Below, piece after piece: positions 9,752-58,809 of a stretch of DNA of 64,000 bases. A program made the translations under genes and the position numbers. The notes below the pieces were generated by a model. That model ran no database searches. It was not told where the DNA came from and saw only the letters and a program-made list of their open reading frames with translations. Position 1 is the first letter of the stretch; every line of letters starts with the position of its first letter. Where the stretch lies: the sequence record PZ476263.1. One strand, given 5' to 3'. The DNA comes from a phage.

Positions 9752-9763
9752 CTATTTTAAAAA

Positions 9764-10030: not shown

Positions 10031-10064
10031 TATGCCCCTATCTAAAGGGGCTTGTTAACAATTC

Positions 10065-10295
10065 TTAAGCTAAACGAACATCTTCTGGCGTTGTGTAGAA
10101 ACCATCAACAACTTCCGAGGTTTGAGTTGTAAAGTCAACGATCACATCTTCTTGACCATATTCATTTTCCAAACCAACCACGATACCTTTGTCACCGATG
10201 TTAACACCTGCCAAAAAATATTCATTGTAAATATTTTCTACGTCAGTAGGATCGAAAATTACTTCATCACCCAGTTTCAATTCGCTAAATTGCAT
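10065..10295 (-). CDS. small acidic protein
   Basis: 76 aa, strongly acidic. Confidence 0.35.
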   Translation of the reverse strand: MQFSELKLGDEVIFDPTDVENIYNEYFLAGVNIGDKGIVVGLENEYGQEDVIVDFTTQTSEVVDGFYTTPEDVRLA

Positions 10296-10657: not shown

Positions 10658-10702
10658 TGATTAATATAAGTTAATTATACAGATTATTTAAAACAAGTCA
10701 AC

Positions 10703-11062
10703 TTAATTTTTAAAAGTTTTTTCGATCAGGGCGATAGCTTCTTTCCAGTTAGTTTCATCAACACGAAGACTCATATAATGCTGTTCCGTGTTGTCAACCA
10801 CTTCTTCAGTAACTTCTTCAAAGAATTTAAATTCTTCAGGAAGGATCTCAAAATAATCACCGCCTCCTGAATATGCCCTTTTTATGCTGCCGTTTGGAAA
10901 AACAACTGAACAAACACTACCGTAATCATCTACTAATTCCAAAACTTCGAATTGACCACCATTGTATGCAATCTTTTGAATAAGATCCTCGTTGTGAACT
11001 GAAGCATTTTTAAAATCACGAATAGTGTCGACCTTAAGTTTATATTTCTTTCCGATTTTCAT
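10703..11062 (-). CDS. hypothetical protein
   Basis: 119 aa ORF. Confidence 0.35.
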   Translation of the reverse strand: MKIGKKYKLKVDTIRDFKNASVHNEDLIQKIAYNGGQFEVLELVDDYGSVCSVVFPNGSIKRAYSGGGDYFEILPEEFKFFEEVTEEVVDNTEQHYMSLRVDETNWKEAIALIEKTFKN

Positions 11063-11130
11063 CTTCGTTTCCTCTCTTGGTTAAGTGAGGCCATTATGCC
11101 TCACTATTGATACCTTGTCAAATCTTTATT

Positions 11131-11463
11131 TTAAAATTCTTTAAACAAGATCTGCAAGATTGGAACTTCCAATCCTAGCTCGTCAAAGTTAATATCTGAC
11201 ATAAATACCGGAATTGTTCGAGTAATGAAAGAATCCCCGCCTGTATGGACTTTGAGTACCAACATCCCTTTGTACCCCGCCTTAAATTCTTGAACAAATG
11301 GACTTAAAGCACTTACGTAGATAACATGTTTCCCATCTGCAAATTTCTTGTAACGAGTACCTTTTGCCAGACCAGAGATCGGAATACCATCAAAAGTGAT
11401 TGTCGTCATTGTTGGATCGTATGCAATAATCGGACTTGGTTTACTTTGTGATTCTGTGCTCAT
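11131..11463 (-). CDS. hypothetical protein
   Basis: 110 aa ORF. Confidence 0.35.
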   Translation of the reverse strand: MSTESQSKPSPIIAYDPTMTTITFDGIPISGLAKGTRYKKFADGKHVIYVSALSPFVQEFKAGYKGMLVLKVHTGGDSFITRTIPVFMSDINFDELGLEVPILQILFKEF

Positions 11464-11476
11464 ATATTATCTCCTC

Positions 11477-11653
11477 TTATCGAACAAACATCTTGCCTTG
11501 GTCACAATAACCATTCTTGATCCCACGCGGCGCACTCAATTCTTTAAGTGCAACACCACCACACTTACAAACTGTACTTTCACGTTCAGATATTTTACGA
11601 TTCTGATCGAACTCTTCACCACACTTAGTGCATTTATAATTATACAGCGGCAT
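11477..11653 (-). CDS. zinc-ribbon protein (CxxC...CxC), FmdB-like
   Basis: 58 aa ORF not in the track: MPLYNYKCTKCGEEFDQ...CKCGG; fills the gap between flanking genes. Confidence 0.4.
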   Translation of the reverse strand: MPLYNYKCTKCGEEFDQNRKISERESTVCKCGGVALKELSAPRGIKNGYCDQGKMFVR

Positions 11654-11656
11654 TAC

Positions 11657-12457
11657 TTAAAAACCTCCCAGCTTTGCTTCAAAATATGTCAGCGGCTTCA
11701 TGATCTTGCCATTGCAATCTTTCCAGACTACACGATTAACACCGTTGACTTTCACAACATTACCTTTAACACCAGTATATCGACCCTTGTTACGTTTTTC
11801 AATAAGATCAGATTCCAGTTGAATCATCTCTTCAAGAGCTACATCATTCTCACTGAAATAGAAGTGCTGCTTGTAAAATTCCTTGTTGAATTCTTCAACT
11901 GTAGGAATCTTAGAATCATTAGAGTCAAGGACTTCTTCAAGTGCATCAATATAATCGAAATTAAATTTACGCATGATCTCAATTGTGTTTCGAACAACGC
12001 CGTTCGCCAGTTGTTGTCCAACATAATAAGTAAGAATGCTTAAGTTGTCAAAGATGTCTGAATTTTTCTCTGTGACGTAAGGAAAAATATCATATGGTCC
12101 ATCTTTATAAGTTTCATGCAAGCTTCGAGTTTGAAAATCTGCATAAACAGAAACAACGAAAAGATCACACAGTGCATCAATGACTTCTTTACGATTATTT
12201 TTACTAATGCCGAGTTCGTAAAGCTCATTATATTCTTCTTCTACAAGCTCCCACTGAAAGAGAAGCTCGGATGTGGATAGGGCGTGTTTACCACGCGCTG
12301 CAAAATTCCAATCAATAACACGCTGTGCACATTGAGAAACTTTTTCATTTTCGTCAATCTTTAACAGACTGCTAACAAATTCTTTCTCTTTAGTGTTCAT
12401 TTCTAGGAAATCAAACATCATACTCTCCTCTTTCTTAAGTGCAGGGCCATTATACAT
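11657..12457 (-). CDS. possible MazG-like all-alpha NTP pyrophosphohydrolase
   Basis: acidic helical motifs WELVEEEYNELYELG and EVIDALCDLFVV; weak. Confidence 0.25.
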   Translation of the reverse strand: MYNGPALKKEESMMFDFLEMNTKEKEFVSSLLKIDENEKVSQCAQRVIDWNFAARGKHALSTSELLFQWELVEEEYNELYELGISKNNRKEVIDALCDLFVVSVYADFQTRSLHETYKDGPYDIFPYVTEKNSDIFDNLSILTYYVGQQLANGVVRNTIEIMRKFNFDYIDALEEVLDSNDSKIPTVEEFNKEFYKQHFYFSENDVALEEMIQLESDLIEKRNKGRYTGVKGNVVKVNGVNRVVWKDCNGKIMKPLTYFEAKLGGF

Positions 12458-12472
12458 GACCCTTTCAATAAA

Positions 12473-12952
12473 TCAATAGTTATTGTAAATATCTTTCGCT
12501 TCTTCTCGTCGAGAATCCATAAGGATCTTTTCTTTAGCCAAAGAATCTTTTTTCAACTTGGCTTTCTTGTCAGATACCTTTTTCTTGATTGCATAGTACA
12601 ATACATCTCTTTCAACGTGGTTCATCCATTCGAGATCACCATTTACAAACAAAGTATCTCTCAAAACACCAGGCCACCTCTCAAAATATGTAACCCTGCT
12701 AGGATTCATAGAATCCACCAAAGTAAATTCCACTTCCCATGTATCAGGTGCATCATCATCTGAGTCTGGATTATCCGTGTAATAACCTGTGTGGATCGTG
12801 AACCAGCCAAGGTCATTGCGAATAGATCCGATTATCTTATCAGCAGGTGCTTTAACCATAATGTACTCGTAAACTTTGCAAATCACAATGTAAATCAGTA
12901 CAAATCCGATAGTAATGAAGATCCCTACAAAATCTGACAAAAACTCAATCAT
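12473..12952 (-). CDS. membrane-anchored protein
   Basis: N-terminal TM helix FVGIFITIGFVLIYIVI; 159 aa. Confidence 0.35.
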   Translation of the reverse strand: MIEFLSDFVGIFITIGFVLIYIVICKVYEYIMVKAPADKIIGSIRNDLGWFTIHTGYYTDNPDSDDDAPDTWEVEFTLVDSMNPSRVTYFERWPGVLRDTLFVNGDLEWMNHVERDVLYYAIKKKVSDKKAKLKKDSLAKEKILMDSRREEAKDIYNNY

Positions 12953-14322
12953 TTCTTAGTCCTCTTAACCAGCGCTCGTAATGTCTCAAGAAGAGAATCG
13001 GCATGTTCAATAACTTCACCAAGGGTATTCGCTTTAGTCTTATCATGACGGATCTCAACGAACTTATAATTTAGTCGTGGTAAAAACAGAGACTTAAGAT
13101 CCTTATTCTCAGCATCTGTAATATCATTTGCCTTGATCGTGATAATCTGACCAATAAAATATTCCGGTGCTTTCTTACGTAAAGCGTCTGTCAGTCCTGA
13201 ACCTACACCAACTTCCAAAAGACCATCTCGTGTACGGCAAACAAGAGAACCGACAAGCGAAGGATCTTTTTTGTGAGGTAAGGTAGCAACAACCTCAAGA
13301 TCCACGTCGAATTCGTTCTTCAGCTTAATACCTTTCTTAGTCTTATTGTCACCCCAAGGCATGTTTGCCTCTTTCAAGACCGTACCTTCCTTCTTCTGTT
13401 GACGCATCTCGATGAAGTGGTCAATAGCCTCTTCAAGACTATCGATCTGACGACCACGGATCATCTTTAAATGAGAAGACTCATCCACATAGTTGACAAT
13501 ATTTTCAACCTGCTTACGGCGGTCTTTATATTTTTTCTTAGACTTACGTGCAATATACTCGTCCATAGAAACAACATCCCAAACAACCAAGCGTACCAAA
13601 TTAGGATCAATATTTTCAGGATCCTGGTTCAGATAGCCGTTACCGATCTCTCGTGGCTGAACTCCGTGTGGATAAGACAGATCAATAACTAAACCTTCCC
13701 CGTGCATAACAAAAGGACCATCAGAATTGGCTTTTTCTTTCAGGTTTTGCTCAAGTGAAGGAATACACCGGAAATTAAGCTCTTTCCCTGATCGTGAACG
13801 ATAAATGATCTGTTCAGGCCAAACCATAATGTCTGCATAAAGTCCGTCCATCTTCTCGTCGGAGAAAGCGCCCTCATAATCAAACTTGATCAACAGATCC
13901 TCTTTAAAAAGCGTATAACTTTGGTAAGGTGGCTCTGTGATCAGACCTTTCCACACCTTGTTTGTAAGAGTGGTCTGTACACCACAGTCGAGATCACGAT
14001 TTATAACTTTTAACAGAGTTTCCGGCTCAGAGCAAAGCTGAACAGTGTTGATCATTTCTTCACGGGCTGCATAGCCTGTAATTTTTCGACCGCAAACAAA
14101 TTTAACCAGATATCGGATCGAGTCAACAAGACTGTTATTGCCTTGGTGGAATGTTGATTCCATGACTTTCAAGCCACGGACATAAAAATTCAACTCTTTG
14201 GAATAGGTGACTTGGAATACATATTCCAGATCTTTATTATCTCGATTTGCGACCAAGATTGCTTCTTTCTCTTTTGTGGATCGGGTTGCTGCCAGTTGAT
14301 TGATAATATCTGTTACTTTCAT
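12949..14322 (-). CDS. ATP-dependent DNA ligase
   Basis: KMDG (KxDG adenylation motif I) plus EGLVIK-like segment; likely true start is ATG at 14322 with AAGGAG RBS (track ORF extends to 14430). Confidence 0.6.
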   Translation of the reverse strand: MKVTDIINQLAATRSTKEKEAILVANRDNKDLEYVFQVTYSKELNFYVRGLKVMESTFHQGNNSLVDSIRYLVKFVCGRKITGYAAREEMINTVQLCSEPETLLKVINRDLDCGVQTTLTNKVWKGLITEPPYQSYTLFKEDLLIKFDYEGAFSDEKMDGLYADIMVWPEQIIYRSRSGKELNFRCIPSLEQNLKEKANSDGPFVMHGEGLVIDLSYPHGVQPREIGNGYLNQDPENIDPNLVRLVVWDVVSMDEYIARKSKKKYKDRRKQVENIVNYVDESSHLKMIRGRQIDSLEEAIDHFIEMRQQKKEGTVLKEANMPWGDNKTKKGIKLKNEFDVDLEVVATLPHKKDPSLVGSLVCRTRDGLLEVGVGSGLTDALRKKAPEYFIGQIITIKANDITDAENKDLKSLFLPRLNYKFVEIRHDKTKANTLGEVIEHADSLLETLRALVKRTKK

Positions 14323-19064: not shown

Positions 19065-19140
19065 GGCCCTTTAGCTCAGTGGTTAGAGCAGGCGACTCAT
19101 AATCGCTTGGTCGCTGGTTCAAGTCCGGCAAGGGCCACCA
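19065..19140 (+). tRNA. tRNA with CAT anticodon; anticodon stem and acceptor resemble enterobacterial tRNA-Ile2 (lysidine) rather than elongator Met
   Basis: GGCCCTT acceptor, GCTC/GAGC D-stem, GGCGA-CTCATAA-TCGCT anticodon arm, TTCAAGT T-loop, encoded CCA. Confidence 0.8.
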
Positions 19141-19157
19141 CTCAATAGTTTATTTAC

Positions 19158-19249
19158 AAGATCATTCAGTAATTAAGCGAATGCCGGAAGCAGAACCGGA
19201 TCAACAAATGCGTACGGGTGTCATCGCCACCTAGCAACTGAATGATCTT
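19158..19249 (+). other. long stem-loop RNA element (13-bp perfect inverted repeat flanking 66 nt), followed by U-run; possible terminator or small RNA
   Basis: AAGATCATTCAGT (19158-19170) and ACTGAATGATCTT (19237-19249); internal CCGG-aagcagaa-CCGG hairpin. Confidence 0.45.
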
Positions 19250-19332
19250 TTAAATTCTCTTAACCTCATAAAATCCTTGACATAATAAGAAATTCCTGAT
19301 AACATCTCTATATCGACTTAATTGAGGTGCTT

Positions 19333-19707
19333 ATGCCTAAAGCTGAAATCGTTACTAGAAAACGGGGTCGGCCTACTACAGAGGAAAGTATCGCTATCAA
19401 CACCGAGAAGGCGATTCTTCATGCTCGTTCAGAGTTTGCAAGACTTACTCCTCAGGCGATTAAGACTCTGGAAGGTCTACTCACTTCCGGTACAGAGAAA
19501 GTTAAAGAAACTACTGCGAAGTATATTCTTGAACAGGCTGAAAAAGCTAACAATCTGTACACGATGGAAGATAATGAGGAAGATTTAGCGGGAGGTTCAA
19601 CTTCTGCGGATTCTGATACTCATAAAGGCCCTTCTGATGTATTTAAGGATGCAATTCCTCTTACTACTCAAATCAGAGAGTATAAAATTGCAGAAGGTGA
19701 AAACTAA
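19333..19707 (+). CDS. hypothetical protein with N-terminal basic KRGRPT segment
   Basis: 124 aa from ATG at 19333. Confidence 0.4.
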   Translation: MPKAEIVTRKRGRPTTEESIAINTEKAILHARSEFARLTPQAIKTLEGLLTSGTEKVKETTAKYILEQAEKANNLYTMEDNEEDLAGGSTSADSDTHKGPSDVFKDAIPLTTQIREYKIAEGEN

Positions 19708-19728
19708 AGGCTCTTAGGGGCCTTTTAT
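19707..19728 (+). terminator. putative intrinsic terminator
   Basis: AGGCTC-ttag-GGGCCT hairpin followed by TTTTATT. Confidence 0.4.
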
Positions 19729-19946
19729 TAATAGTTCTTTTTAATGTAGTTGCTTGGTGTAATTTTTCGGCAGATGGCTGCAACCATCCTATCGATAACT
19801 CATAGTTAGTGCTGCAAACACTGGCTACCTTAAAGAGAATTTAACTCGTCGAATAAGGAAGATGCTGATCTCAAAGTGAGGTCACTTACCGCAAGGGGTG
19901 TGCATAGACTCCCGCTTCCGAATAGACTATGTGGCGAGATGTATTT

Positions 19947-20028
19947 GGGGACGTGGCAGAGCGGTCGAATGCGCCTGACTGTAAATCAGGTATCCCACAC
20001 GGTGGTTCGAATCCATCCGGCCCCACCA
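19947..20028 (+). tRNA. tRNA-Tyr (GTA)
   Basis: CCTGA-CTGTAAA-TCAGG anticodon arm, GGTGG-TTCGAAT-CCATC T-arm, acceptor CGGCCCC-A-CCA; overall like enterobacterial tRNA-Tyr. Confidence 0.75.
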
Positions 20029-20282
20029 AATTAAGAAGCAGGGTCGCTACCTGCAAGTCGTCGGACTGAGATTCCCTGAATAAGACCCGACTTTAAGGCG
20101 TACAAATGTTCGGTTTAAAGTCCCTTATCTCACAGTCGAAACGGCGCATCCTATTCAGCCGTGATGTGATGTAATCACTGACCTCTTTGAAGGATCATGG
20201 CATCCTATACAAAAAAAAAACCTGAATAATTTAGGTTTTAATGCCTGGGGGTTCGTAGCCCTATTACTAAGAGGACTTAACT

Positions 20283-20492
20283 ATGTTTACTATTAAAATT
20301 ATTGATATCGATGGAAATGAGACGGGTGTTTCAACAAGGCACTACAGATGGTACTCAAAAATGAATATTTTTGATGTGGAGGGTGGAGAATCTGTTTCTG
20401 TACCACCAAAAAGTCGTGCTTATGTAATGAATGACAAAGGAATAACCATCGGTAGATACACAAATACAGCGGATCAACGCGTTCTTAATTAA
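20283..20492 (+). CDS. hypothetical protein
   Basis: 69 aa ORF between tRNAs. Confidence 0.35.
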   Translation: MFTIKIIDIDGNETGVSTRHYRWYSKMNIFDVEGGESVSVPPKSRAYVMNDKGITIGRYTNTADQRVLN

Positions 20493-20493
20493 A

Positions 20494-20568
<75 letters not shown>

Positions 20569-20667
20569 AACACATATCCATCTGACGCGTTTATGGGGTT
20601 GACCTGATCAATCTTCTCCTAATTTCGTGTGAAGACATCATGATTGTTGGGATGGATAAACTTATTT

Positions 20668-20742
20668 TGGGGATTAGCCAAGCGGTAAGGCATCGGATTT
20701 TGATTCCGACATTCACTGGTTCGAGTCCAGTATCCCCAGCCA
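20668..20742 (+). tRNA. tRNA-Gln (TTG)
   Basis: TGGGGAT...AAGCGGTAAGG...CGGATTTTGATTCCG...GGTTCGAGTCC...CCCCAGCCA; very close to E. coli tRNA-Gln. Confidence 0.85.
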
Positions 20743-20747
20743 ATTAA

Positions 20748-20824
20748 CGGTGTGTAGCGCAGCTTGGTAGCGCATCTGGTTTGGGGCCAGAGGGCCGTTG
20801 GTTCGAATCCAACTACACCGACCA
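20748..20824 (+). tRNA. tRNA-Pro (TGG)
   Basis: CGGTGTG TAGCGCAGCTTGGTAGCGCA TCTGG-TTTGGGG-CCAGA ... GGTTCGAATCC ... CACCGACCA; very close to E. coli tRNA-Pro. Confidence 0.85.
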
Positions 20825-20900: not shown

Positions 20901-20914
20901 TTTGGTCTTTCGGT

Positions 20915-20923
20915 GATAAAATA
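20915..20923 (+). promoter_or_regulatory. late-type promoter element GATAAAATA (extended -10-like TGnTAAAAT)
   Basis: gTGATAAAATAc 17 nt upstream of spanin start; same motif recurs upstream of other late operons. Confidence 0.45.
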
Positions 20924-20939
20924 CTCAAAGGAGGTAATC

Positions 20940-21302
20940 ATGCCAGATTTTAAAAAATATTTATTCATTGCTATATTCATAGTGTTCTTAATTTCATCTG
21001 CTAAGCTTTATCTTAATCATGTTGAATCAGTAGGTTACGAAAAAGGTTTCAATGTTGCTAACTCTGCTTGGGTAAAAAAGGCAGGGGAGTACAAAAAGAA
21101 AATTGACGATACATATGAAGAAAACAAGCGTCTTAACGAGGAGCTTTCCCGATCCAATCAGGAAAAGATAAAGGATGAAAAGGCAAAAGAAGAAAAAATT
21201 ACCGATATGCAGATCGAATACTACAAGTCTGAAAAAGGTAAGGATGTCTTTGACAATAATGAAATAATTGACATATACAACGAATCCTTGGGGGTAAAAT
21301 GA
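20940..21302 (+). CDS. i-spanin-like protein (N-terminal TM helix + periplasmic coiled coil)
   Basis: MPDFKKYLFIAIFIVFLISSAKLYL TM followed by charged coiled-coil; ATG at 20940 after AGGAGG RBS. Confidence 0.5.
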   Translation: MPDFKKYLFIAIFIVFLISSAKLYLNHVESVGYEKGFNVANSAWVKKAGEYKKKIDDTYEENKRLNEELSRSNQEKIKDEKAKEEKITDMQIEYYKSEKGKDVFDNNEIIDIYNESLGVK

Positions 21303-21598
21303 GAAAAATATTTATAGCTTTCTTCTTTTGCTTTTTACTTTCCGGTTGTCAATCAGCAGAAATCTGTGGCCCTACGGAAGAAGTAACTATTGAGAAGATT
21401 CTTCCTAAACCTGATCTTGAACTCCTTGTCAAAGAAAAGGAAAAGAAGCTCATCCAGAAGGGATCTACTAATGCAGACGTTGGAAAGGTCATGAGTGATA
21501 ACAATCTTCGTTCCAATCGTATAGAGCGCCGTTGGGAAGGCTTAAGGACTTACGTTTGCAACAGTTTCAAAAATATCCCTAAAGAATACTGCGATTAA
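21299..21598 (+). CDS. o-spanin-like outer-membrane lipoprotein
   Basis: signal peptide with lipobox FLLSGC; ATGA overlap with upstream i-spanin-like gene. Confidence 0.5.
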   Translation: MRKIFIAFFFCFLLSGCQSAEICGPTEEVTIEKILPKPDLELLVKEKEKKLIQKGSTNADVGKVMSDNNLRSNRIERRWEGLRTYVCNSFKNIPKEYCD

Positions 21599-21695: not shown

Positions 21696-22050
21696 ATGTC
21701 TGCTACATTCGCACCTGCGAGTCGCAAGCAACAAATGGTTCTCGAATCTACAGCACAGATTATGGTAATAGGTGGTGCAGCAGGATCAGGTAAATCATAC
21801 CTTTTACAGTTGATGCCTTTGCTTATTGTAAACGACCCTAAAACAGCCTGCATCATGTTTCGTCGTACTGTACCGCAGATTCGTGGACAAGGTGGCTTGT
21901 TTGACAAAGCTAAAGATATTTATAACCAGCTGCCTCCGGTAGTTAAGCCGAAGTTTAAAGAGAACGAGATGACTGCTACATTCCCTAACGGAGCAACCGT
22001 TAAGTGGCAGTCTATGCAACACGTAAGTGATAAATACGACATCCAGGGGT
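21696..22050 (+). CDS. terL: terminase large subunit, exon 1 (Walker A ATPase segment)
   Basis: IGGAAGSGKSY Walker A; frame terminates at TAA 22050-22052 inside predicted intron 1; predicted 5' splice site after U22050. Confidence 0.6.
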
Positions 22051-22960
22051 AAAAATTTCCTGCCCATCGTATCTTAATCGGTGAAACTCTGTTATAATAA
22101 GTACAGACAATACCGAGATCCATTACCTGAAATGACAGTAGGGAGATATGATGAAAAAATTTGAAATTGTTCCAAGCAAACCTGAATTTTCCGTAAGTGA
22201 AGACGGGCTGATTATGTTTACCTCTACAGGTACTATTCTTAAGCCGTATGTTGATAAGGATGGTTACCACAGGGTTAGAAATTTCTCTGCTGGAGGTAAA
22301 TCTCATTACATCGCCGTTCATCGCGCCGTTGCTGAGGTTTTTGTTAAAAACCCTAACCCAAAAGTGTTTAAGATTGTTAATCACTTGGATAATGTTAAGA
22401 GCAACAATCATAAAACCAATTTGGAATGGACAACCGAATCATTAAACCGAGTTCATGCAGTTCATGCCAACGGTACAGCATCTGTTAGAAACAATGTTAA
22501 ATTTACAGAAGGTCAAGTCAGAAAGGTGTGTGAACTTTTGAGCTTGGGCTATCGGATAGTTGATATTGTGAAACTTACAGGCGTTGATAGATTCAATGTG
22601 ATGGCAATTAGAAGCGGAAAATCTTGGGTTCAGATCTCTTGTGAGTTTGAAACTTTAAAAGTAGAAAGAAAAGATACACTGTCTGAAAAGACGATTCTTT
22701 GGATTAAAGACCAAATTAATCGCCAAAGGTCAGATGATGAAATACTTTTAATGTCGGTAAGACTTACAAAAGAAGAGCTTGAAAGAGCAAAGAAGATTAT
22801 TTCATTGATGGATTGTAACGACTAATGCTGATGAGTGTAAGCATGTAGGGCCAAGCGGTCCGAAACGATACGCCAAGGATGGAAGATATAGTCTGAACTA
22901 TATGGTGACATATAGCTGCTTAAGCAGGGTTAAGATTAGCGATCTTAATCGAACACAATG
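22051..22960 (+). mobile_element. group I intron 1 (about 910 nt) with internal HNH homing endonuclease ORF
   Basis: S element AAGATATAGTC at 22883-22893, R-like AACGACTAA at 22818-22825, P9 hairpin CTATATG-GTGA-CATATAG (GNRA loop), candidate IGS GCCC near 5' end, 3' end ...GAACACAATG. Confidence 0.6.
22148..22825 (+). CDS. intron-encoded HNH homing endonuclease
   Basis: DGYHRV...HRAVAEVF...NHLDNVKSNNHKTNLEW HNH core; lies wholly between terminase exons. Confidence 0.65.
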   Translation: MMKKFEIVPSKPEFSVSEDGLIMFTSTGTILKPYVDKDGYHRVRNFSAGGKSHYIAVHRAVAEVFVKNPNPKVFKIVNHLDNVKSNNHKTNLEWTTESLNRVHAVHANGTASVRNNVKFTEGQVRKVCELLSLGYRIVDIVKLTGVDRFNVMAIRSGKSWVQISCEFETLKVERKDTLSEKTILWIKDQINRQRSDDEILLMSVRLTKEELERAKKIISLMDCND

Positions 22961-23014: not shown

Positions 23015-23341
23015 TAATCTAGCTGCCTCGTACAGTAATGTACGATGAGAAATTCTTGTGAATTGCTGGAAAATCCTTAGAGCTTGTAAAACTACAACAT
23101 GACCTGCAAAGGTGAGTGTGAATGTTAAAAATTTACAAGATTGGACGATCAGCCTCCAAGCCTCTTTACGAGAGGAAGGTTCAACGACTAGCCGAAAGGC
23201 GTAGATCATAAGCAAATGATGATCGAAGTGCAAGACCCCTACCTTATTGGTAGGGTGAAGATATAGTCTGATCTGCATGGTAACATGCAGCAGTGCTTGA
23301 GTGCACGGCAACGAACTTGCGATCCGTTGCGAACATAACAG
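23015..23341 (+). mobile_element. group I intron 2 (about 327 nt, ORF-less)
   Basis: IGS-like GCTGC pairing with exon GCAGU; R-like GTTCAACGACTAG 23179-23191; S AAGATATAGTC 23258-23268; P9 CTGCATG-GTAA-CATGCAG; 3' end ...GAACATAACAG. Confidence 0.55.
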
Positions 23342-24420
23342 TAGAATACATGATGTCTCGTCTTCGTTCCAGTTCTTCTTACCCTTCACGAATGGTAATT
23401 AGTTGTAACCCTGATCCTGATCATTATCTTCGTAAGATGGTTGATTGGTATCTCGATAAGGATGGTTATCCTGATCCTACAAAGGATGGAGTCATTCGAT
23501 ATTTCGTTCGAGTTGATGACCAATACATGTGGGGCGAATCAGTAGAAGAGCTTAAGAAGCGGTACGGTAAGAAATGTAAGCCTGTTTCTTTTACATTTAT
23601 ATCTTCTACTATTTACGATAACCCACCAATGCTTATTAACAACCCAGACTATCTAGCACAGCTGGAAGGTCTTAATGAGGTTGACAGAGCAAGACTGTTA
23701 CACGGCAACTGGGATGCACGTCCTCAGGGTGCTAACTATTTTAAACGTTCTTTTCTTAAAGAGGTTGATGTTCTTCCTTTAGGTGTAGATAAGGTTAGAT
23801 CATACGATAAAGCAGGAACTGAACGTTCTACAGGTAATAAAACACCTGACTTTACAGCCGGAATCGGTGTGGCGAGAGATCAGGACGGAATTTATTATCT
23901 TTTTGGCGATTATTGTGAAGAGTTTGTTGATGAAGGTGATTGGTCTACTGGCAACCTTGGTAGGTTCTGTAAGAAAGCTGGTGAACGAGATACGATCATT
24001 ATGAAACAAGCAATTCATGACGGTGATGATGTTAGAATAATATTCCCTGTTGACCCTGGTCAAGCGGGTATTGCTGAATTCACTACATCTTCCCGAGAAT
24101 TATTAAATCAAGGATTCATTGTTGAGAAAGACCCAACTCCTGGTAACAAGAAGAAGCTTGTACGCTTCTCTCCGTTTGCTAACCTTGCTCAGAACGGATT
24201 TGTTAGGATTGTTAAAAAGTCTTTCCCTTTGGATACCTATGAAGCATTAATGAAAGAGCTTGAATCTTTCAATGGTGAAAGGTCAACAGGGACACGTAAA
24301 GATGACTGGGTGGATGCTATCTCAACCGGAATAAATTTCCTTGAGAAAACAGAAATAGTCAGGGCTGTTACAATACCACGACCTTCTGCCCCAACACTTT
24401 ATTCGAAGTATCGACGATAA
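23342..24420 (+). CDS. terL: terminase large subunit, exon 3 (nuclease domain)
   Basis: continues ...EYMMSRLRSSSSYPSRMVISCNPDP...; acidic nuclease motifs DQDGIYYLFGDY, DPGQAGIA, DDWVDAISTG. Confidence 0.6.
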
Positions 24421-50991: not shown

Positions 50992-52626
50992 ATGGCTATA
51001 CCAACTACGCCGATTGTTGTTTTTGCGGCACAAGATGTTAACCTTCCTGGTACTGGAAGACCAAACAAATCAAAACCTATTGATGATCTGTTGGCGAAAG
51101 GTTATGACAAGGGCCAGAAACCTGCGGCGGAAGAATTTAACTATATCCTCCACCAATCTGGAGCTTGGCTTTCTTATATCATCAATGAGAAGTTCCCCGA
51201 GGTAGAAGAGGAATATCGCAGACTAATCAACGAGCTTGAAAATCGTATTAACGAACAGATCACTATTATTCGTCAAGACGTTGCTGCGGTAAGGCAAAAC
51301 GTAATTGAATTACGTCAATACTTGGATCAACAGGTGGCGAATCTTCGTCGTGAGATTACTGCGGTTGACCAACGGGTTACTCGTTTATCTCAAGACTTGG
51401 ATGCGGCTGTTGCTAACCTTACTTCACGTATAGATGCATTGGAGCCTCGTTTAGTTCCAATTGGTGCAATCCTTACATGGGCAGGACAAACCCCGCCTGC
51501 GGGTTATTTAGAGTGTAATGGTCAGGTATACAATACGAACCAAAACCCGAAACTCTATCAAGTTTTAGGAAGAAACGTAGTTCCTGATTATCGTGGTTTG
51601 TTCCTTCGTGGATGGGCGCATGGGTCTAACGCATACGATCCTGATTCTGGTCGTGCATTGGGATCTATTCAGGGCGATGCAATCCGAAACATTACGGGCG
51701 CAATGGGATATGAAAGTATCCGTACTGACCACGGTTATCGTGAAACTGGTGCACTTTATACTCAGTACAATTCCAACAGTGGTCCAGACCATGACCGTAA
51801 AAACCCTGCGGGTGATGTACGGTTTGATGCGAGCCGTGTAGTTCCTACCGCTCCTGAGAACAGACCAAAAAACGCCGCAGTTATGTATATCATAAAAACT
51901 GATCAGGCTCAGGGTACGGGAAGTCTTTCTCCTACGTCCTTGATTACTACACCTGATACGATAACTAACCGTGTTGGATTTACTCAAGGGATTAGTGCTC
52001 AAGTTCTTCCTGCAAACTTAGCTAGTCAGTATCCGGTAACTTGGACATCACAAAACGGTAATGTTGCAACCGTGGATAGTGCAGGTAACGTAAGATTGAC
52101 CGGACCTGGTGAGACGAATATTATTGCCTCTATATCTACGGGATTGTCGGCGCAGGTTAGAATTGTATCCTATACCGCACTAACAAGTATTAGTATTGGC
52201 ACTATTCCAACCATAGAAGTTAACGGGTCTGAAGTTGTACCTATTAACAGAGTACCTGCAAACTCCAATGAACCTCTGGTTTATTCAACCAGTAATGCAA
52301 ACGTGGCAGTAGTTACCCAAGGTGGTTATGTTTCAGGTGTTGCTCCAGGGACAGCTGTTATTACTGTGCGTGGCTCTATTTCTGGCGCTCAAGCTACAAG
52401 ACAGGTAACTGTAATTCCTGCGACTGTTGTTCAAACTATCGAAGATGTTCGTTTAGGTATTGAACAGCAAACCACTATGAACGGTGACAACTACACGAGT
52501 CCAGTTCGTGCTCCGGCAGGTTGTGTTATCACAGGTGTTGTTTCTGCGGGTCTTGGTCTTAACCAAGGTTATTATAAACCAATCCAGAAGCTTATGTCCG
52601 GCGTTTGGGTGACAGTTCAAGGATAA
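50992..52626 (+). CDS. tail fiber protein with coiled-coil stalk, tail-collar-like domain and Ig-like repeats
   Basis: heptad region (RINEQITIIRQDVAAVRQNV...), PIGAILTWAG...YLECNGQ...LYQVLG...PDYRGLFLRG collar-like motif, two Big_2-like segments. Confidence 0.55.
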   Translation: MAIPTTPIVVFAAQDVNLPGTGRPNKSKPIDDLLAKGYDKGQKPAAEEFNYILHQSGAWLSYIINEKFPEVEEEYRRLINELENRINEQITIIRQDVAAVRQNVIELRQYLDQQVANLRREITAVDQRVTRLSQDLDAAVANLTSRIDALEPRLVPIGAILTWAGQTPPAGYLECNGQVYNTNQNPKLYQVLGRNVVPDYRGLFLRGWAHGSNAYDPDSGRALGSIQGDAIRNITGAMGYESIRTDHGYRETGALYTQYNSNSGPDHDRKNPAGDVRFDASRVVPTAPENRPKNAAVMYIIKTDQAQGTGSLSPTSLITTPDTITNRVGFTQGISAQVLPANLASQYPVTWTSQNGNVATVDSAGNVRLTGPGETNIIASISTGLSAQVRIVSYTALTSISIGTIPTIEVNGSEVVPINRVPANSNEPLVYSTSNANVAVVTQGGYVSGVAPGTAVITVRGSISGAQATRQVTVIPATVVQTIEDVRLGIEQQTTMNGDNYTSPVRAPAGCVITGVVSAGLGLNQGYYKPIQKLMSGVWVTVQG

Positions 52627-52631
52627 TAATC

Positions 52632-53144
52632 ATGAGAATGAATAATTTTAAAGTATACTCGCCAGAGGTTAAAGCTTTTGGTGAAGGAGTTCAATATTTT
52701 CAAGATGAAAAGGGAAGGGACTTCTATGAATCTCGTGGACTATTCAAAAAGAAATATGTAGTTTTCTTTGATGAGCACAATATAGTTCGTGGATGGGCAA
52801 AAAGTGAAGAAGTTACCCGTCTTCACCCAGGTGGTTTATCCGTTGTCGACCTGAATACCTTGCCGAAAGAATTTTCTTTACAGGATGGTGTGTGGTCATT
52901 CAATGGGAAACAGGTCGTTAAAGCCGACTATGATCCGGTATTTACCACGGAAGTAAGAAAGGCAGGTATTTTGCAAGTAATTGGGTCTGTTATCGCCCCA
53001 CTTCAAGATGCTGTTGAATTAGGAGAGGCTACGGAAGAAGAGACTGAAAAATACAATCATCTCCGCAGGATGAGAGTTAAAGTCATGCGTATTCCAGATA
53101 GCACTTGCCCCGCCGATATAGACTGGTCAGAGTTTACTGTCTAA
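52632..53144 (+). CDS. tail fiber assembly protein (gpG/Tfa-like), putative
   Basis: immediately after fiber gene; ~170 aa; C-terminal DIDWSEF. Confidence 0.4.
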   Translation: MRMNNFKVYSPEVKAFGEGVQYFQDEKGRDFYESRGLFKKKYVVFFDEHNIVRGWAKSEEVTRLHPGGLSVVDLNTLPKEFSLQDGVWSFNGKQVVKADYDPVFTTEVRKAGILQVIGSVIAPLQDAVELGEATEEETEKYNHLRRMRVKVMRIPDSTCPADIDWSEFTV

Positions 53145-53186
53145 TCTTACATTTATGTCGGGCTTCGGCCCGACTGTGGAGAATCT

Positions 53187-53519
53187 ATGATTGTTGATTT
53201 AATGGCAGTATTAAAAGCACTATGGGGCCTATTAACATTCATTCTTTTAGGTGCACTTAAGATATTTTATTCCGACTTCAAAAAATTGGAGTCCCGTCAA
53301 AGTGAACTTGAAAAGGATGTTCTGCGACTTAAAGAATCTGCGGTCACTAAGGATAGTATTGATGCGATCCTTGACCGAAAAATAAAACATATTACTGATA
53401 CCATTCAAGATATCCGCGAAGATATCACCGACATGAGAAGGGAGGCTAAGGAAGAGAACCATGCTCTTCAGCGTGATATTCGCGAATTGTTGAATAAGAT
53501 CATAGAGGGTCGTAAATGA
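53187..53519 (+). CDS. membrane-anchored coiled-coil protein
   Basis: N-terminal TM (LMAVLKALWGLLTFILLGAL) then charged coiled coil; 110 aa. Confidence 0.4.
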   Translation: MIVDLMAVLKALWGLLTFILLGALKIFYSDFKKLESRQSELEKDVLRLKESAVTKDSIDAILDRKIKHITDTIQDIREDITDMRREAKEENHALQRDIRELLNKIIEGRK

Positions 53520-53974
53520 TTACAGCCATAATATATGGCCTTTGTTTTGTAATCCTTGCAACCCGAAAAGAGAGTGGCACGAAGATGGTGGCGGGGATTT
53601 GCCTCGCCTACCTGATTATCGAAAATATAATTTTGTATTATTTCAGCGGTATGATCGTCTTTGACATTTCTCTTTATTTTAATGTCCTCTGGGCATTGGA
53701 TTCGATACTGCTTTTCACTTTAGGTTGCACAGTGAAAGGATTAAGACAAAAGCTAATAGTCGGACTCAGTATACCTTTTATGCTTGTCCAAGTGTTTGCA
53801 ATCCAATACCCAGAACTTTTCCCTCTTTGGGTGTATGAATTCGCTTTCAAGGATGCCCACAAATATTTCATAGAGGTATTTGTGTTTGTATTTTCTTGGA
53901 AGGATAATACAGTCCCTGAGTGGATCAGAACAGCCATAGTAATATTTCTGGTCTTGATTGCTCATTTGGTCTGA
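53516..53974 (+). CDS. polytopic small membrane protein
   Basis: 152 aa, 4-5 hydrophobic helices; ATGA overlap with upstream gene. Confidence 0.4.
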   Translation: MITAIIYGLCFVILATRKESGTKMVAGICLAYLIIENIILYYFSGMIVFDISLYFNVLWALDSILLFTLGCTVKGLRQKLIVGLSIPFMLVQVFAIQYPELFPLWVYEFAFKDAHKYFIEVFVFVFSWKDNTVPEWIRTAIVIFLVLIAHLV

Positions 53975-53996
53975 ACATTGATAATGAAGGTGATCC

Positions 53997-54257
53997 ATGT
54001 TAAAATTTCTGAAAGACCTAGTAACCTCCGCAATAGAACCAGATAAGGCTTCACATACGAAGTTTTGGTCCAATGTGGGTATGGCAGCTATGACTGCTGT
54101 CTTTTTATGGTATGGGTTTAATAATACATTACCAGAGTGGTACGTTTGGTTGTATGCCCCAACCGTGGTTGCTCCGCACCTGTTGAGTGACCTAATTAAC
54201 CTTCGCTGGGGATTATCTCTTAAAAAGGATAAAGACCCTTCAGACGAAAACAAGTAA
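53997..54257 (+). CDS. holin-like small membrane protein
   Basis: 86 aa, two hydrophobic segments, charged C-terminus KKDKDPSDENK. Confidence 0.35.
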   Translation: MLKFLKDLVTSAIEPDKASHTKFWSNVGMAAMTAVFLWYGFNNTLPEWYVWLYAPTVVAPHLLSDLINLRWGLSLKKDKDPSDENK

Positions 54258-54269: not shown

Positions 54270-57200
54270 GTGTCGTCTAATACCGATATTTTAGCTTTGC
54301 TTAATACGGAAGCGGATCAAGCTGTGGACCAAATCATTGAAGACTCTAGAAGACTTCACTTGGTGGTCAATGGTACAGGAACAGAACAAGTAGTTACTGA
54401 AGATGGTAGCCTGATTCCTACAATCCGTAAAGCAATTATTGATAATTTTTATTTCAAAACTCCACCTTTACCTTGGAGAAATGGAGGATCGGTTGTTGAG
54501 TTTAACCAACTGTATGCTTTCACCGATCTGAATGGGAATGTATCTTGGTGGTATGCTCCTGGTGCGACGAGTGCTTCTCCTGTTGTGATGAGAGATAGCC
54601 CAATCAATGATGGTAAGTTTAGACCATTCTTTGATAAAGGTAATATTCAAGACACTTACGCTCCGCTTCTTTCTCCGGCTTTCCGTGGAAACCCTACAGT
54701 ACCACTCCCTCCTGAGGGAGATTCTTCCTTTACCATTGCACCAACTGCATGGGTATCTCGCGAAATTGAAAAGGTCCGTGGTGAAATAGTTGAAGAATCT
54801 CGCGGTGAATTTCAAAACATTATTGTAAGGGACGATGCATCTCTTAAAGACCTCTACGTAAGTGGGGAAGCGATCTTTACAAGTGAGAGAATTGCTGCAT
54901 TGGATTCCGAGCTGTCGCTTAAGCGCTTAAGAATGGCAGGTCCACAAGCGGAGATGGCTTTTGAGCAAAATGGATCCTCCCCTGCTGCGGGACTTACCAA
55001 AAAGACAAATATAAAGCCTTATGAAATAACCACTGGCAGGTTCATTTCCAATACTGTGCAGGCTGACGAGATTAAAGTTGGTGATACCTCTCGTTCAGTA
55101 AACAGTTTGGATGTTGAAGGTTACATGCAGGCTGATTATTTACATCTGGAAGGTAATGCCAATAACGATGCGGAAAGACCTCAGTTAATTGTTGACGGCA
55201 TCGCAGAGATTAAAACTCTTCGCGTTATAGATACAATTGAAGGGTTGAAAGCTGACGTTGAAGGTCTAGATATTAACCCCAATAGTGTCGTAGTTGAAAG
55301 AACTTCAAGGGTAAAAGGTGCAGCAACTTTTGATTCTACCGTAAATGTATCCGGCACAACGACTTTAAATAATGTGGTTATTGAAGGTACGCTAACGGGC
55401 GCAGGGATCGGTGTTGACGGAAAAGATATTGCTCCTCGTTCAGTAAATGCGACTTCTGTAACTGTTGCACAAAATCTTAACGTAACTGGTGAGACTTTTG
55501 CAGCTGGGGATATGACTGTAAATAACCTTAGGGTTAACGGTGCACTCATCGCAGATATCGATATTGAGGGAAGTGATCTTAACTTCACCAACATTAACGT
55601 CTCAGAAAAAGCCACAATAAAAGACCTTGAAGTGACAGGAACTGTAACCGGATTTACTGTAAGTGTTGACGGAGAGGATATTTCTCCTGCAACGGTAACA
55701 ACCTCCGGCAATGTAACTGTTGGAAATAACCTTCGTGTCTCTGGCGATCTTACTGTAGATGGTGAACTGGCAATACCTGCCTTAGATACAGGAGAGATCA
55801 CTGCGGGAGATATTTCAGGTAATTCTTTAACCCTCGACGGCGATCTTACCACAGGTCCAGAGTCTACCACTCGTCTTCATAATCTCGTTGTCACAGGAAC
55901 GACCACAGGCCTCACTGTAACAGCGAATGTAGATGGACAAGACATTCTCCCATCCAGTGTCGCTACAGGCAATCTGGATGCATCTGGAGAGGTTTCAGCG
56001 GCATCTCTGTCGGTTACTGGGGCAACGCAAGTAAAAGACCTGAATATTACAGGGACTGTTACCGGATTACAGATCGATCTTTCTGACGAGGCGGTATCTG
56101 TTGATTCAATAACGGCAAGAAGAACTTCCAACTTCGCAGATATTAGTACGACAAATATCACAAATGCTGAAAAGATTACAACTCAGGATTTACAAATCCT
56201 CGGTGATCTTACAGATGCTGACGGTAACCCATTCTATGCCAATGTGACTGGTCAAGACATCTTACCTAACAGTGTTCAATCTGCAACATCTGTCCGAACT
56301 AAAACTTTACGTGTTGAAGAAACATCTCTTCTTGAAGGAACAGTTACTTTAAATAACGGATTGATTGTTACTGACGGGGACATAACTTCAACGCAAGGTA
56401 TTGCAAAGTTTAACGATGTTCAGATATTTGGTTCTTTAACAGATGCGAATGGTAATGGTATTGGCACTGTTGAAAGTATCCAAGGAAGAGATATTGCCCC
56501 TCGAAGTGTTGTGGCTCAAGTTGATGTTCAGGCCGCAGCCTTAGAAATAACAGGGCAGGCACATGTAGGTTCTTTGATTGTTGATGGAGAAACTACAACG
56601 AGCAGCATAAACATTTCAGGTATTGCAACTGCTAATGAAGTTATTGTTGACACGGTAAGGTCTGGTCAGATAACTTCAGGAAACGTAGTAATAACAAGAA
56701 CTGTAGGCTCTTCTGATCCGGCACTTGAAGTACGTGGCCCAGGGCAGATTCAAGGCGATCTCAGTGTTACTGGAACAATCTCTGGAAACATTGACCTGTC
56801 TGCCAAAGATATCAGTGTAAACTCTTTAACCTCAGCAGGAGCTATAACCGGAATATCTGTTTCTTCCAGCACTTCTGTAACTGGATTGTCTGCTACTTTT
56901 GGTGAAGATTACCCTGAAGCACCTGCCTACGGGATTACATCTTTATCTGGTGCAAACATTAATAAAAACCTTCGTGTTGGTGGTAATTTAACTGTTGTTG
57001 GGAACATCTCTGGAAACATTGATCTTAGTGGGAAGACTATCTCTCCGCAAGAGGTTGATGCAACCACGATTGGAGCTACAAATGCCAATCTGACCAACCT
57101 TACAGTTACCGGAAACCTGACTTTACCTTCAGTACCTTTGACTTCTCAAAGTCTTACGGCGGAGGGTCTTGTTAGTGCAGCTAAGTTTAGCACAACTCCA

Positions 57201-57503
57201 AAAGAAAATACAACCAGTTCTTCTACCTACATCCCTGACGGAACTACAAGCGTTTATAACGTTAACGTAGTAAACGATGTGGAAGTAAGAGCACCGTTGA
57301 ATTTGCTTACAAGTGCTAAAGGAGAATCAATTTTCCTGTTCTTCGAACAAGACTCCATCGGAGGTCATGCTGTAACCTTCGGTTCTGATTTTGTTATTCA
57401 TGGAAGTGAAACCATCAACACGGATCCTAGTTCAATAACTGTGGTAAACATGGTTTATCGTGGTAAAGGTCCTTTGATTGACGTTTTCATCACCCGTCGC
57501 TAA
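54270..57503 (+). CDS. long repetitive tail fiber protein (1077 aa)
   Basis: more than 12 tandem ~40-50 aa modules of the form G.DI.P.SV......L.V.G; Thr/Gly/Val-rich. Confidence 0.55.
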   Translation: MSSNTDILALLNTEADQAVDQIIEDSRRLHLVVNGTGTEQVVTEDGSLIPTIRKAIIDNFYFKTPPLPWRNGGSVVEFNQLYAFTDLNGNVSWWYAPGATSASPVVMRDSPINDGKFRPFFDKGNIQDTYAPLLSPAFRGNPTVPLPPEGDSSFTIAPTAWVSREIEKVRGEIVEESRGEFQNIIVRDDASLKDLYVSGEAIFTSERIAALDSELSLKRLRMAGPQAEMAFEQNGSSPAAGLTKKTNIKPYEITTGRFISNTVQADEIKVGDTSRSVNSLDVEGYMQADYLHLEGNANNDAERPQLIVDGIAEIKTLRVIDTIEGLKADVEGLDINPNSVVVERTSRVKGAATFDSTVNVSGTTTLNNVVIEGTLTGAGIGVDGKDIAPRSVNATSVTVAQNLNVTGETFAAGDMTVNNLRVNGALIADIDIEGSDLNFTNINVSEKATIKDLEVTGTVTGFTVSVDGEDISPATVTTSGNVTVGNNLRVSGDLTVDGELAIPALDTGEITAGDISGNSLTLDGDLTTGPESTTRLHNLVVTGTTTGLTVTANVDGQDILPSSVATGNLDASGEVSAASLSVTGATQVKDLNITGTVTGLQIDLSDEAVSVDSITARRTSNFADISTTNITNAEKITTQDLQILGDLTDADGNPFYANVTGQDILPNSVQSATSVRTKTLRVEETSLLEGTVTLNNGLIVTDGDITSTQGIAKFNDVQIFGSLTDANGNGIGTVESIQGRDIAPRSVVAQVDVQAAALEITGQAHVGSLIVDGETTTSSINISGIATANEVIVDTVRSGQITSGNVVITRTVGSSDPALEVRGPGQIQGDLSVTGTISGNIDLSAKDISVNSLTSAGAITGISVSSSTSVTGLSATFGEDYPEAPAYGITSLSGANINKNLRVGGNLTVVGNISGNIDLSGKTISPQEVDATTIGATNANLTNLTVTGNLTLPSVPLTSQSLTAEGLVSAAKFSTTPKENTTSSSTYIPDGTTSVYNVNVVNDVEVRAPLNLLTSAKGESIFLFFEQDSIGGHAVTFGSDFVIHGSETINTDPSSITVVNMVYRGKGPLIDVFITRR

Positions 57504-58778: not shown

Positions 58779-58809
58779 AAAGGCTCCCAAAAGGGAGCCT
58801 TTATTTTTA
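58779..58809. terminator. bidirectional intrinsic terminator between convergent transcription units
   Basis: AGGCTCCC-aaaa-GGGAGCCT flanked by A-run upstream and T-run downstream. Confidence 0.65.

Follow-up and report, generated by a model that had tools for sequence, protein, structure and literature searches.

Three Conserved Membrane Protein Genes Between Tail Fiber Genes

The window analyzed here is a 64,000-nucleotide (nt) stretch of phage DNA (PZ476263.1), and comparison with the nucleotide sequences of phage records indicates that it is part of the genome of a Vequintavirinae-type (rV5-type) myophage. The closest records are those of the Escherichia phages UPEC06, W70, A73, and LTH01 (~80% nucleotide identity), and the gene order is that of the Certrevirus phages CB7 and phiTE. 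The subject of this work is a group of three open reading frames (ORFs) at positions 53187–54257 that, as noticed in a first-pass annotation of this sequence, encode small membrane proteins; all three are located on the plus strand and have the architectures described there. ORF1 (53187–53519) encodes a protein of 110 amino acids (aa) with a transmembrane domain (TMD) and a coiled coil, ORF2 (53516–53974) a polytopic protein of 152 aa, and ORF3 (53997–54257) an 86-aa protein with a predicted two-helix hairpin. Homology and gene context, described below, suggest that ORF3 is most likely the holin of this phage.

The stop codon of ORF1 overlaps the start codon of ORF2 (ATGA), and each of the three genes is preceded, at 5–8 nt, by a Shine-Dalgarno-like motif. 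The neighbors on both sides are those recognized in the first-pass annotation, namely, a tail fiber assembly gene (tfa; 52605–53144, plus strand; Pfam Caudo_TAP, E 3.7e-12) and the gene of a long tail fiber of 1077 aa (54270–57503, plus strand; phrog_4549). The true start of tfa may be slightly 3′ of 52605 because the match of its two closest relatives begins at residue 8. The 42-nt spacer between tfa and ORF1 contains a stem-loop, GTCGGGC-TTCG-GCCCGAC (53157–53174, plus strand; RNA fold −16.4 kcal/mol, z −3.45), which is not followed by a U-tract. The stem is identical in UPEC06 (L001 ~12528–12547), and a hairpin of another sequence occupies the same place in CB7 (L008 ~5223–5242), which suggests a conserved RNA element, an attenuator or a stabilizer; it possibly functions as a leaky terminator or a transcript-stabilizing hairpin.

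No endolysin gene adjoins the trio and none was detected by a Pfam scan of part of the window ORFs, whereas the spanin pair, reported earlier to lie 30 kb away, is indeed found at 20913–21598. It consists of an i-spanin with an N-terminal TMD and a coiled coil (20913–21302, plus strand) and an o-spanin with the lipobox LLSGC (21299–21598, plus strand), the start of which overlaps the i-spanin stop. This pair marks the start of the late gene block, 5′ of the terminase gene and ~30–32 kb from the trio.

The three ORFs show 78–85% DNA identity to their counterparts in W70, and the codon differences are mostly synonymous (33 synonymous and 1 non-synonymous in ORF3, 47 and 6 in ORF1, 52 and 24 in ORF2), so that they are not chance ORFs but real, conserved genes under clear purifying selection. 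Homologs are present in 374 phage records for ORF3, 229 for ORF1, and 107 for ORF2, and the three proteins match PHROG profiles nearly end to end (phrog_5345, E 2.2e-35, for ORF1; phrog_7451, 2.9e-57, for ORF2; phrog_1322, 1.3e-29, for ORF3).

As a conserved component, the trio belongs to the late structural operon of Vequintavirinae, and it is also found in distant Aeromonas phages and in phAPEC8-type phages. It had already been seen by annotators, who labeled it "membrane protein" and nothing more: the counterparts in PVP-SE1 (gp44, gp43, and gp42, in the order of ORF1 to ORF3) were so labeled in 2011, with 1, 4, and 1 TMDs, respectively, and CB7_33, CB7_34, and CB7_35, together with their phiTE counterparts, represent the same trio, the CB7 record citing the phiTE proteins YP_007392700–702. 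In rV5, ORF1-like gp31 and ORF3-like gp29 are present with a fiber gene between them and ORF2 is absent. In the Aeromonas Plateaulakevirus phages, with 27–38% identity, all three positions are filled; in one of these loci, that of Aeromonas phage 2L372X (NC_048770), an unannotated polytopic ORF of 146 aa (L005:6514–6954) occupies the space separating the ORF1-like gene from the ORF3-like one, making the three-gene module complete. In the phAPEC8-type phage tuntematon, the ORF3 homolog is directly 5′ of the wedge J gene, and gp131 (L003:12969–13304), encoded after tfa, is labeled a lipoprotein but has no lipobox and combines an N-terminal TMD with a coiled coil as ORF1 does. Given this synteny across whole subfamilies and the GC content of the trio, which is continuous with that of the neighboring genes, a recent horizontal insertion can be ruled out; rather than being inserted between the fiber genes, as proposed in the first-pass annotation, the trio belongs to the ancestral operon.

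The conservation of ORF3 parallels that of the baseplate wedge protein and not that of the long fiber. The identities of ORF3, wedge, and fiber are 98.8, 93.3, and 71.5% in W70, where the fiber was aligned in full length, and, with the N-terminal half of the fiber aligned, 81.4, 74.9, and 52.7% in CB7, 58.8, 51.4, and 33.8% in PVP-SE1, and 48.8, 50.2, and 30.8% in rV5; in tuntematon and the Aeromonas phages, only ~110 N-terminal residues of the fiber can be aligned. Thus, ORF3 is as conserved as the wedge while the fibers diverge, which implies that it does not track receptor specificity.

Homologs of ORF3 in Lysis Cassettes of Mu-Like Phages and Prophages

ORF3 is predicted to begin with a short helix, which is followed by two helices of weak hydrophobicity (residues ~23–41 and ~48–69) and a disordered charged tail. 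The two helices and the charged C-terminus had been noted in the first-pass annotation and are predicted here as well, but the tail (5 K/R and 4 D/E, net +1) is to be regarded as net-neutral rather than basic. An exhaustive profile search with ORF3 resulted in 91 representative clusters of proteins of ~80 aa, of which 85 were aligned. The family signature comprises G-x-x-S-H-T-K-x-W-x-N before helix 1 and S-K-(F/W)-L-x-x-K-Y-G after helix 2. The loop of 6–7 residues between the helices lacks K/R in 51 of the 85 members, and both flanks contain ~2.3–2.4 K/R; from this charge pattern, the positive-inside rule predicts an N-in/C-in, class II-like topology. Nine of the 85 representatives contain an extra N-terminal TMD (e.g., L015:7929–8261 and L012:8001–8348). 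In the L015 locus, it is an in-frame upstream ATG that would add the TMD, and the possible long and short forms recall the dual starts of holin/antiholin genes.

All 85 representatives match phrog_1322, which PHROGs assigns to the category "moron, auxiliary metabolic gene and host takeover". Five of them also match, weakly, the Pfam family DUF2644 (PF10841; best E 6.3e-5), and precomputed DUF2644 hits are recorded for several distant ORF3 relatives; the window protein itself does not match this model, so the relationship exists at the level of the wider family. DUF2644 is uncharacterized, and no mention of it was found in the literature searched. Scans of ORF1–3 and their relatives against NCBIfam and PADLOC yielded nothing significant (with PADLOC, ORF1 gave coiled-coil noise, and ORF2 and ORF3 gave no match), and a PDB sequence search with ORF2 and ORF3 detected no relatives.

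By contrast, comparison of the Vequintavirinae ORF3 profile with that of a group of small proteins from Mu-like phages and prophages yielded an hhalign score of 99.5% (E 1.9e-22, 78 columns), in agreement with reciprocal tblastn hits, so that on sequence grounds the homology of ORF3 to this family is secure. The Mu-like relatives are found inside lysis cassettes. In the Mu-like Ralstonia phage RS138, the gene order is late activator, endolysin, family member ORF27, Rz with embedded Rz1, and terminase; in Pseudomonas phage Bise, the genes for Mor and an M15 peptidase are followed by the family member, an i-spanin with an embedded o-spanin, a TMD and coiled-coil protein, and the small terminase subunit (TerS). 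A metagenomic contig encodes a GH108 endolysin, an ORF3-family member, and an i-spanin-like protein with an N-terminal TMD.

To extend this survey to prophages, one genome per bacterial species was scanned with the Mu-like alignment of the ORF3 family, and 61 prophage loci were returned, mainly from Neisseriaceae, Cupriavidus, Moraxella, and nitrifiers. An endolysin gene is located upstream on the same strand in 52 of the 61 loci, in 42 of these no more than 250 nt from where the match begins; given that the longer, three-TMD forms begin ~100 nt earlier, most of the endolysin and family genes are directly adjacent. The endolysins belong to seven unrelated types, of which six were confirmed by Pfam (Amidase_2, VanY/M15, GH108 with PG_binding_3, CHAP, Amidase_3, and GH24, i.e., Phage_lysozyme) and the seventh is the RS138 type; none of the cassette endolysins has an N-terminal hydrophobic segment or TMD, which implies that a hole-former is needed. 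The gene 3′ of the family member usually encodes a protein with an N-terminal TMD that resembles an i-spanin, and in several loci an ORF with a lipobox comes next. A constant small membrane protein gene beside interchangeable soluble endolysins is the classic signature of a holin. That the family adjoins the endolysin gene in the majority of the prophage loci surveyed points to ORF3 being probably a holin.

Phage Mu itself has no ORF3-family member between lys and gp23 (positions 8500–13500; L087); Mu encodes a signal-arrest-release (SAR) endolysin, and experiments have shown it to be holin-less (PMC9239132). The Mu proteins gp19 and gp20, which have been shown experimentally not to be holins, were considered as potential members of the family but proved unrelated in profile comparison. 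The presence of the family with soluble endolysins and its absence in the one SAR case examined, that of Mu, is suggestive. The Zn-finger gene (gp24) and the TMD/coiled-coil gene at the gp25 position retain their places between Mu and the Mu-like phages and prophages sampled. KS10 and BcepMu possess a different holin, unrelated to the ORF3 family.

A third context is that of T4-like Stenotrophomonas, Acidovorax, and Xanthomonas phages and metagenomic relatives, where the family gene is located between the DNA polymerase gene and dUTPase/regA, on the strand opposite to the early genes, with a terminator on its 3′ side. A holin function is neither supported nor contradicted by such a location. 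In Stenotrophomonas phage Moby (NC_048802), the ORF3-family ORF (L023 ~5001–5180, plus strand) is unannotated, although an annotated terminator follows it, and the record instead assigns this location to a "hypothetical protein" on the minus strand; several related Stenotrophomonas records have no annotated feature under the match.

ORF1 and ORF2

ORF1 has one N-terminal hydrophobic segment (residues 2–27) followed by a highly charged helical region, and a PDB sequence search with it returned generic coiled coils and nothing else. A hidden Markov model (HMM) of the ORF1 family identified nine ORFs in the same prophage loci, all on the cassette strand and ~0.7–1.3 kb 3′ of the ORF3-family gene. 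The profile of the cassette protein of the Neisseriaceae type (MDFEFAFKTLWG...YATKAEA...) matches ORF1 in a region comprising the TMD and the N-terminal half of the coiled coil (hhalign 92.9%, E 3.7e-7), whereas four controls with other TMD and coiled-coil proteins, including the i-spanin of the window and a second type of cassette protein, scored 0.1–9%. With moderate confidence, ORF1 can thus be considered a homolog of the TMD and coiled-coil proteins encoded in the Mu-like prophage cassettes of Neisseriaceae.

In the cassettes inspected in detail, a small TMD/coiled-coil gene follows the Zn-finger gene and precedes the gene of the small terminase subunit, and the ORF1-HMM hits are found at comparable distances 3′ of the ORF3-family gene, i.e., at the position of the Mu gp25 "releasin". 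By analogy, ORF1 might be viewed as a positional and architectural counterpart of gp25 (DUF2730; PMC9239132), which it resembles in size and in the combination of an N-terminal TMD with a charged helical domain of ~80 residues, its probable prophage homologs being encoded, like gp25, after the spanins and the Zn-finger gene and before TerS. Membership of ORF1 in DUF2730 was nevertheless rejected, given the lack of a Pfam hit and of detectable homology to gp25 (hhalign 0.5%); furthermore, there is no endolysin gene near ORF1, and the target of the Mu releasin is a SAR endolysin, whereas those considered here appear to be soluble. An i-spanin identity of ORF1 was likewise discarded because no lipobox ORF is embedded in it or adjacent to it, a separate spanin pair exists, and the hhalign score to the i-spanin is 0.1%. 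Altogether, ORF1 is probably an accessory, perhaps regulatory, protein of lysis, to judge from these parallels. One T4-like metagenomic contig encodes, after the ORF3-family gene, a TMD and coiled-coil protein of 142 aa (L012:8377–8805), followed by a terminator; this protein (hhalign 9%) and a similar neighbor in L018 are architectural look-alikes of ORF1 with no detectable homology to it.

ORF2 contains 4–6 hydrophobic helices. It has no relatives beyond the Vequintavirinae-type phages and none in the prophage cassettes, and no Pfam or NCBIfam match at E ≤ 0.1, including models of the GtrA and Acyl_transf_3 type. Its homologs (P0045–P0066) all carry the precomputed tag PF26221, so that a recent Pfam family seems to exist, but the tag is not interpretable. 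The absence of ORF2 from the rV5 genus suggests that it is dispensable. Our guess is that ORF2 could be a modulator of lysis timing. P2 LysA is a polytopic, non-essential lysis-timing protein, and ORF2 is similar to it by description rather than by sequence, being polytopic, ~150 aa long, dispensable in some lineages, and encoded beside a holin candidate; the difference is that the relatives of ORF2 are confined to Vequintavirinae-type phages.

Virion Proteomics and Holin Candidates in the rV5-Type Phages

In the CB7 virion, 26 proteins were identified by tandem mass spectrometry (MS/MS), some from a single peptide; among these were CB7_31, CB7_36, and CB7_37, which include the fiber proteins encoded on either side of the trio, but not CB7_32–35. 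For rV5, there is no mass spectrometry (MS) evidence for gp29 or gp31 (Table S3 of the rV5 paper), and the accessible part of the phiTE cryo-electron microscopy paper, in which 19 distinct chains were modeled, mentions neither gp237–241 nor pTE23x/24x nor any "membrane protein". The virion MS of CB7 and rV5 thus gives no indication that the trio homologs are structural proteins of the virion, with the reservation that small membrane proteins can escape detection.

The holin of this phage group has been sought repeatedly. In the rV5 paper, no holin homolog was found, and gp129 was nominated solely since two programs predicted two TMDs in it; in the CB7 paper, the nominee was CB7_82, a 65-aa protein the gene of which overlaps a SleB-like gene in the replication gene region; and no holin was found in KPP-1 according to the respective paper. 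In the Stenotrophomonas Mendera-type group, neither a holin nor an endolysin was identifiable (Marzo genome paper). Homologs of CB7_82 are found in 11 phage records, none of them from the E. coli relatives, versus 374 records for ORF3. The experimentally confirmed holins are all products of late genes (PMC9239132), and ORF3 is likewise part of the block of late structural genes. The CB7 paper further reported that the spanin genes adjoin the terminase gene in CB7, rV5, and PVP-SE1, and the same arrangement is seen at 20913–21598 in the window.

A Putative Displaced Holin and the Competing Explanations

Considering all these observations together, we regard it as moderately probable that the trio is a lysis-related module, with ORF3 as the putative holin and ORF1 and ORF2 as accessory membrane proteins, within a dispersed lysis system resembling that of T4. 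Of the displaced holin/antiholin set suggested in the first-pass annotation, it is the holin part that gained support, for ORF3, from the proximity of the family to soluble endolysins in 52 of the 61 prophage loci, RS138, and Bise. For such a module, we infer late co-transcription of the three genes, with ORF3 accumulating along with the structural proteins and adopting an N-in/C-in helical hairpin in the inner membrane. At a set time, ORF3 lesions would let a soluble endolysin, encoded elsewhere, reach the cell wall, and the spanin pair at 20.9–21.6 kb would then break the outer membrane; ORF1 and ORF2 could tune or assist permeabilization of the inner membrane and thereby its timing, and the hairpin at 53157–53174 may lower the expression of the membrane protein genes relative to the fiber genes.

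Among known holins, ORF3 most resembles those of class II (e.g., phage 21 S68 and T7 gp17.5), with which it shares a length of ~80 aa, a predicted two-helix hairpin with both ends in the cytoplasm and a short periplasmic loop, and a late gene position, in addition to having homologs inside an endolysin/spanin cassette; it differs from them in lacking a Pfam holin match, a dual-start motif, and a basic tail, and in the unusually weak hydrophobicity of its helices. The genomic arrangement is comparable to that of T4, where the holin gene t directly follows the tail fiber genes 37/38, and the endolysin gene e and the spanin genes are located elsewhere: ORF3 likewise belongs to a late tail fiber cluster, with the endolysin and the spanins tens of kilobases away, and rIIA/rIIB are present in the group. 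However, T is a 218-aa protein with a single TMD and a large periplasmic domain that shows no homology to ORF3, and three membrane protein genes are found here versus one in T4.

Several observations weigh against this assignment. The function of the ORF3 family is deduced entirely from gene context, whereas in this genome ORF3 adjoins fiber genes and not endolysin or spanin genes, and in T4-like phages of the Mendera/Busan type the family gene is a solitary neighbor of the DNA polymerase gene. The helices of ORF3 are weakly hydrophobic (mean Kyte-Doolittle value ~1.0–1.1), and its rV5 homolog gp29 was not called a membrane protein by TMHMM or Phobius (rV5 paper). The C-terminal tail is not basic, the net charge averaging −0.16 across the family and being positive in 41% of the members. 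No significant Pfam holin match was obtained for ORF1–3, and a search for Phage_holin_* models in 23 plus 85 ORF3 relatives found a sole match, in one member (Phage_holin_9, E 0.17). The AlphaFold2 models built with family alignments are of low confidence (predicted local distance difference test, pLDDT, 58 for ORF3 and 62 for ORF2), and the homology of ORF1 covers a TMD and a coiled coil, regions that are error-prone in profile matching. Moreover, the deep synteny with fiber and baseplate genes, up to the Aeromonas and phAPEC8-type phages, could mean a morphogenetic role, and the ORF3 family could consist of antiholins or other lysis accessories instead of hole-formers.

The last of these possibilities, namely, that ORF3 and its partners regulate lysis, as an antiholin, a sensor for lysis inhibition, or a releasin-type helper, with the true holin (e.g., of the gp129 or CB7_82 type) encoded elsewhere, appears not very likely to us but is compatible with a range of facts. 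In P2-type cassettes, the gene between the endolysin and spanin genes is that of the accessory LysA. The weakly hydrophobic helices and the non-basic tail of ORF3, the location of the probable ORF1 homologs at the Mu gp25 releasin position, the presence of rIIA/rIIB in rV5, and the nomination of other 2-TMD proteins as holins in the rV5 and CB7 papers all fit such a role. Nonetheless, in RS138 and Bise, the endolysin gene directly follows the late activator and no other small multi-TMD protein is encoded before the terminase genes, and the partner endolysins, having no N-terminal TMD, call for a hole-former; CB7_82, besides being limited to 11 records, is encoded among replication genes, and rV5 gp129 belongs to a block of small ORFs at 92–121 kb and not to the late block. 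A role of the trio as membrane-anchored morphogenetic factors for the fiber or baseplate, that is, chaperones or an inner-membrane assembly platform absent from the virion, seems quite unlikely. From the E. coli to the Aeromonas phages, the location between fiber genes does not change, the phAPEC8-type ORF3 homolog is directly 5′ of wedge J with an ORF1-like gene after tfa, the conservation of ORF3 parallels that of the wedge, and the trio, like the Tfa chaperone, is undetected in virions; against this stand the Mu-like and T4-like homologs, which are encoded away from tail genes and, in the case of the Mu-like ones, inside lysis cassettes. We know of no precedent for an integral-membrane fiber chaperone, and the available part of the phiTE text names none of the trio's counterparts.

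Superinfection exclusion or injection blocking of the kind exerted by T4 Imm/Sp and HK97 gp15, or receptor modification or masking similar to that by T5 Llp, was the other suggestion of the first-pass annotation, and we found it to be improbable and unsupported. The trio is indeed located in the host-range region, the ORF3 family is placed by PHROGs under moron and host takeover, and ORF1 has a weak match (E 8.6e-4) to a "bacteriocin production or immunity" PHROG. T4 carries imm near gene 43, and the ORF3-family gene of the T4-like relatives is also beside gene 43; T4 Imm and HK97 gp15 are, like ORF3, small inner-membrane proteins with two TMDs, and gp15 is encoded among tail genes. However, ORF3 matches neither Pfam Imm_superinfect nor any PADLOC model, and there are no GtrA or acyltransferase hits for the trio; strong purifying selection acts on ORF3, which equals the wedge in conservation and occurs universally in strictly virulent phages. 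A protein that acts on the receptor, by masking or modification, or shuts out certain phages should vary along with the receptor-binding parts of the fiber, which ORF3 does not. Glycans or flagella have been reported as the receptors of these phages. The prophage homologs belong to late lysis operons, which are presumably silent in lysogens, as inferred from Mu regulation; expression of Mu-type late lysis operons in a lysogen is not expected. Finally, it is highly improbable that the three proteins are low-copy virion components that enter the host membrane upon infection as a channel or ejection device. Such proteins could be encoded in a structural operon as the trio is, and the record of Acinetobacter phage ABPW7 labels the ORF3 homolog "structural protein", the basis of the label not being given; yet, the homologs reside in lysis cassettes, CB7_32–35 were missing from the CB7 MS/MS at single-peptide sensitivity, rV5 gave no MS evidence for the trio homologs, and the part of the phiTE text available is silent on the counterparts.

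The holin assignment of ORF3 can be extended to a three-component holin system in which a weakly hydrophobic hairpin holin would act with a tethered coiled-coil partner and a polytopic modulator, the ORF3 and ORF1 core being common to Mu-like prophages and large virulent myophages. The rV5-type phages would have wired this system into the fiber operon, coupling lysis timing to completion of the adsorption apparatus. We consider this extended scheme unlikely.

Implications for Annotation and Phage Engineering

The myophages that are most frequently isolated and used in therapy and biocontrol include the Vequintavirinae and related groups (rV5, PVP-SE1, phi92/phAPEC8 types, Certrevirus), and in the published genomes of the group either no holin is identifiable or the candidates are poorly conserved. 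ORF3 provides one specific, universally conserved candidate, which is backed by a large family of prophage homologs in textbook lysis cassette positions. The homology between ORF3 and the Mu-like family, its association with cassettes, and the probable ORF1 homologs in the same cassettes are, we believe, probably new findings. If ORF3 is a holin, it would represent a new holin family of unusually weak hydrophobicity with a possible dedicated partner. Automatic annotation would improve for hundreds of phage and prophage genomes in which the gene is now hypothetical, mis-stranded, or missed, and the finding would be relevant for engineering the timing of lysis in therapeutic phages. It would introduce no new principle, given that dispersed lysis genes and a holin gene beside fiber genes are known from T4.

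Other Features of the Window

Further upstream of the trio, before the Caudo_TAP gene, a short fiber of 544 aa with Collar and Big_2 domains is encoded. Downstream of the 1077-aa fiber gene, there is a structural gene of 410 aa, and a bidirectional terminator (58779–58802) is located beyond these two.

Near the start of the late genes, the gene of the large terminase subunit appears to be split (21696–22052, 22148–22825, and 23293–24420) into an N-terminal piece with the Walker A motif and a C-terminal piece, between which lies an ORF with HNH-endonuclease-like motifs. Similar intron/homing endonuclease arrangements have been reported in rV5 and CB7. Directly 5′ of the spanin pair and the terminase gene, at 19065–20824, there are five tRNA genes (Met, Tyr, Gly, Gln, and Pro).

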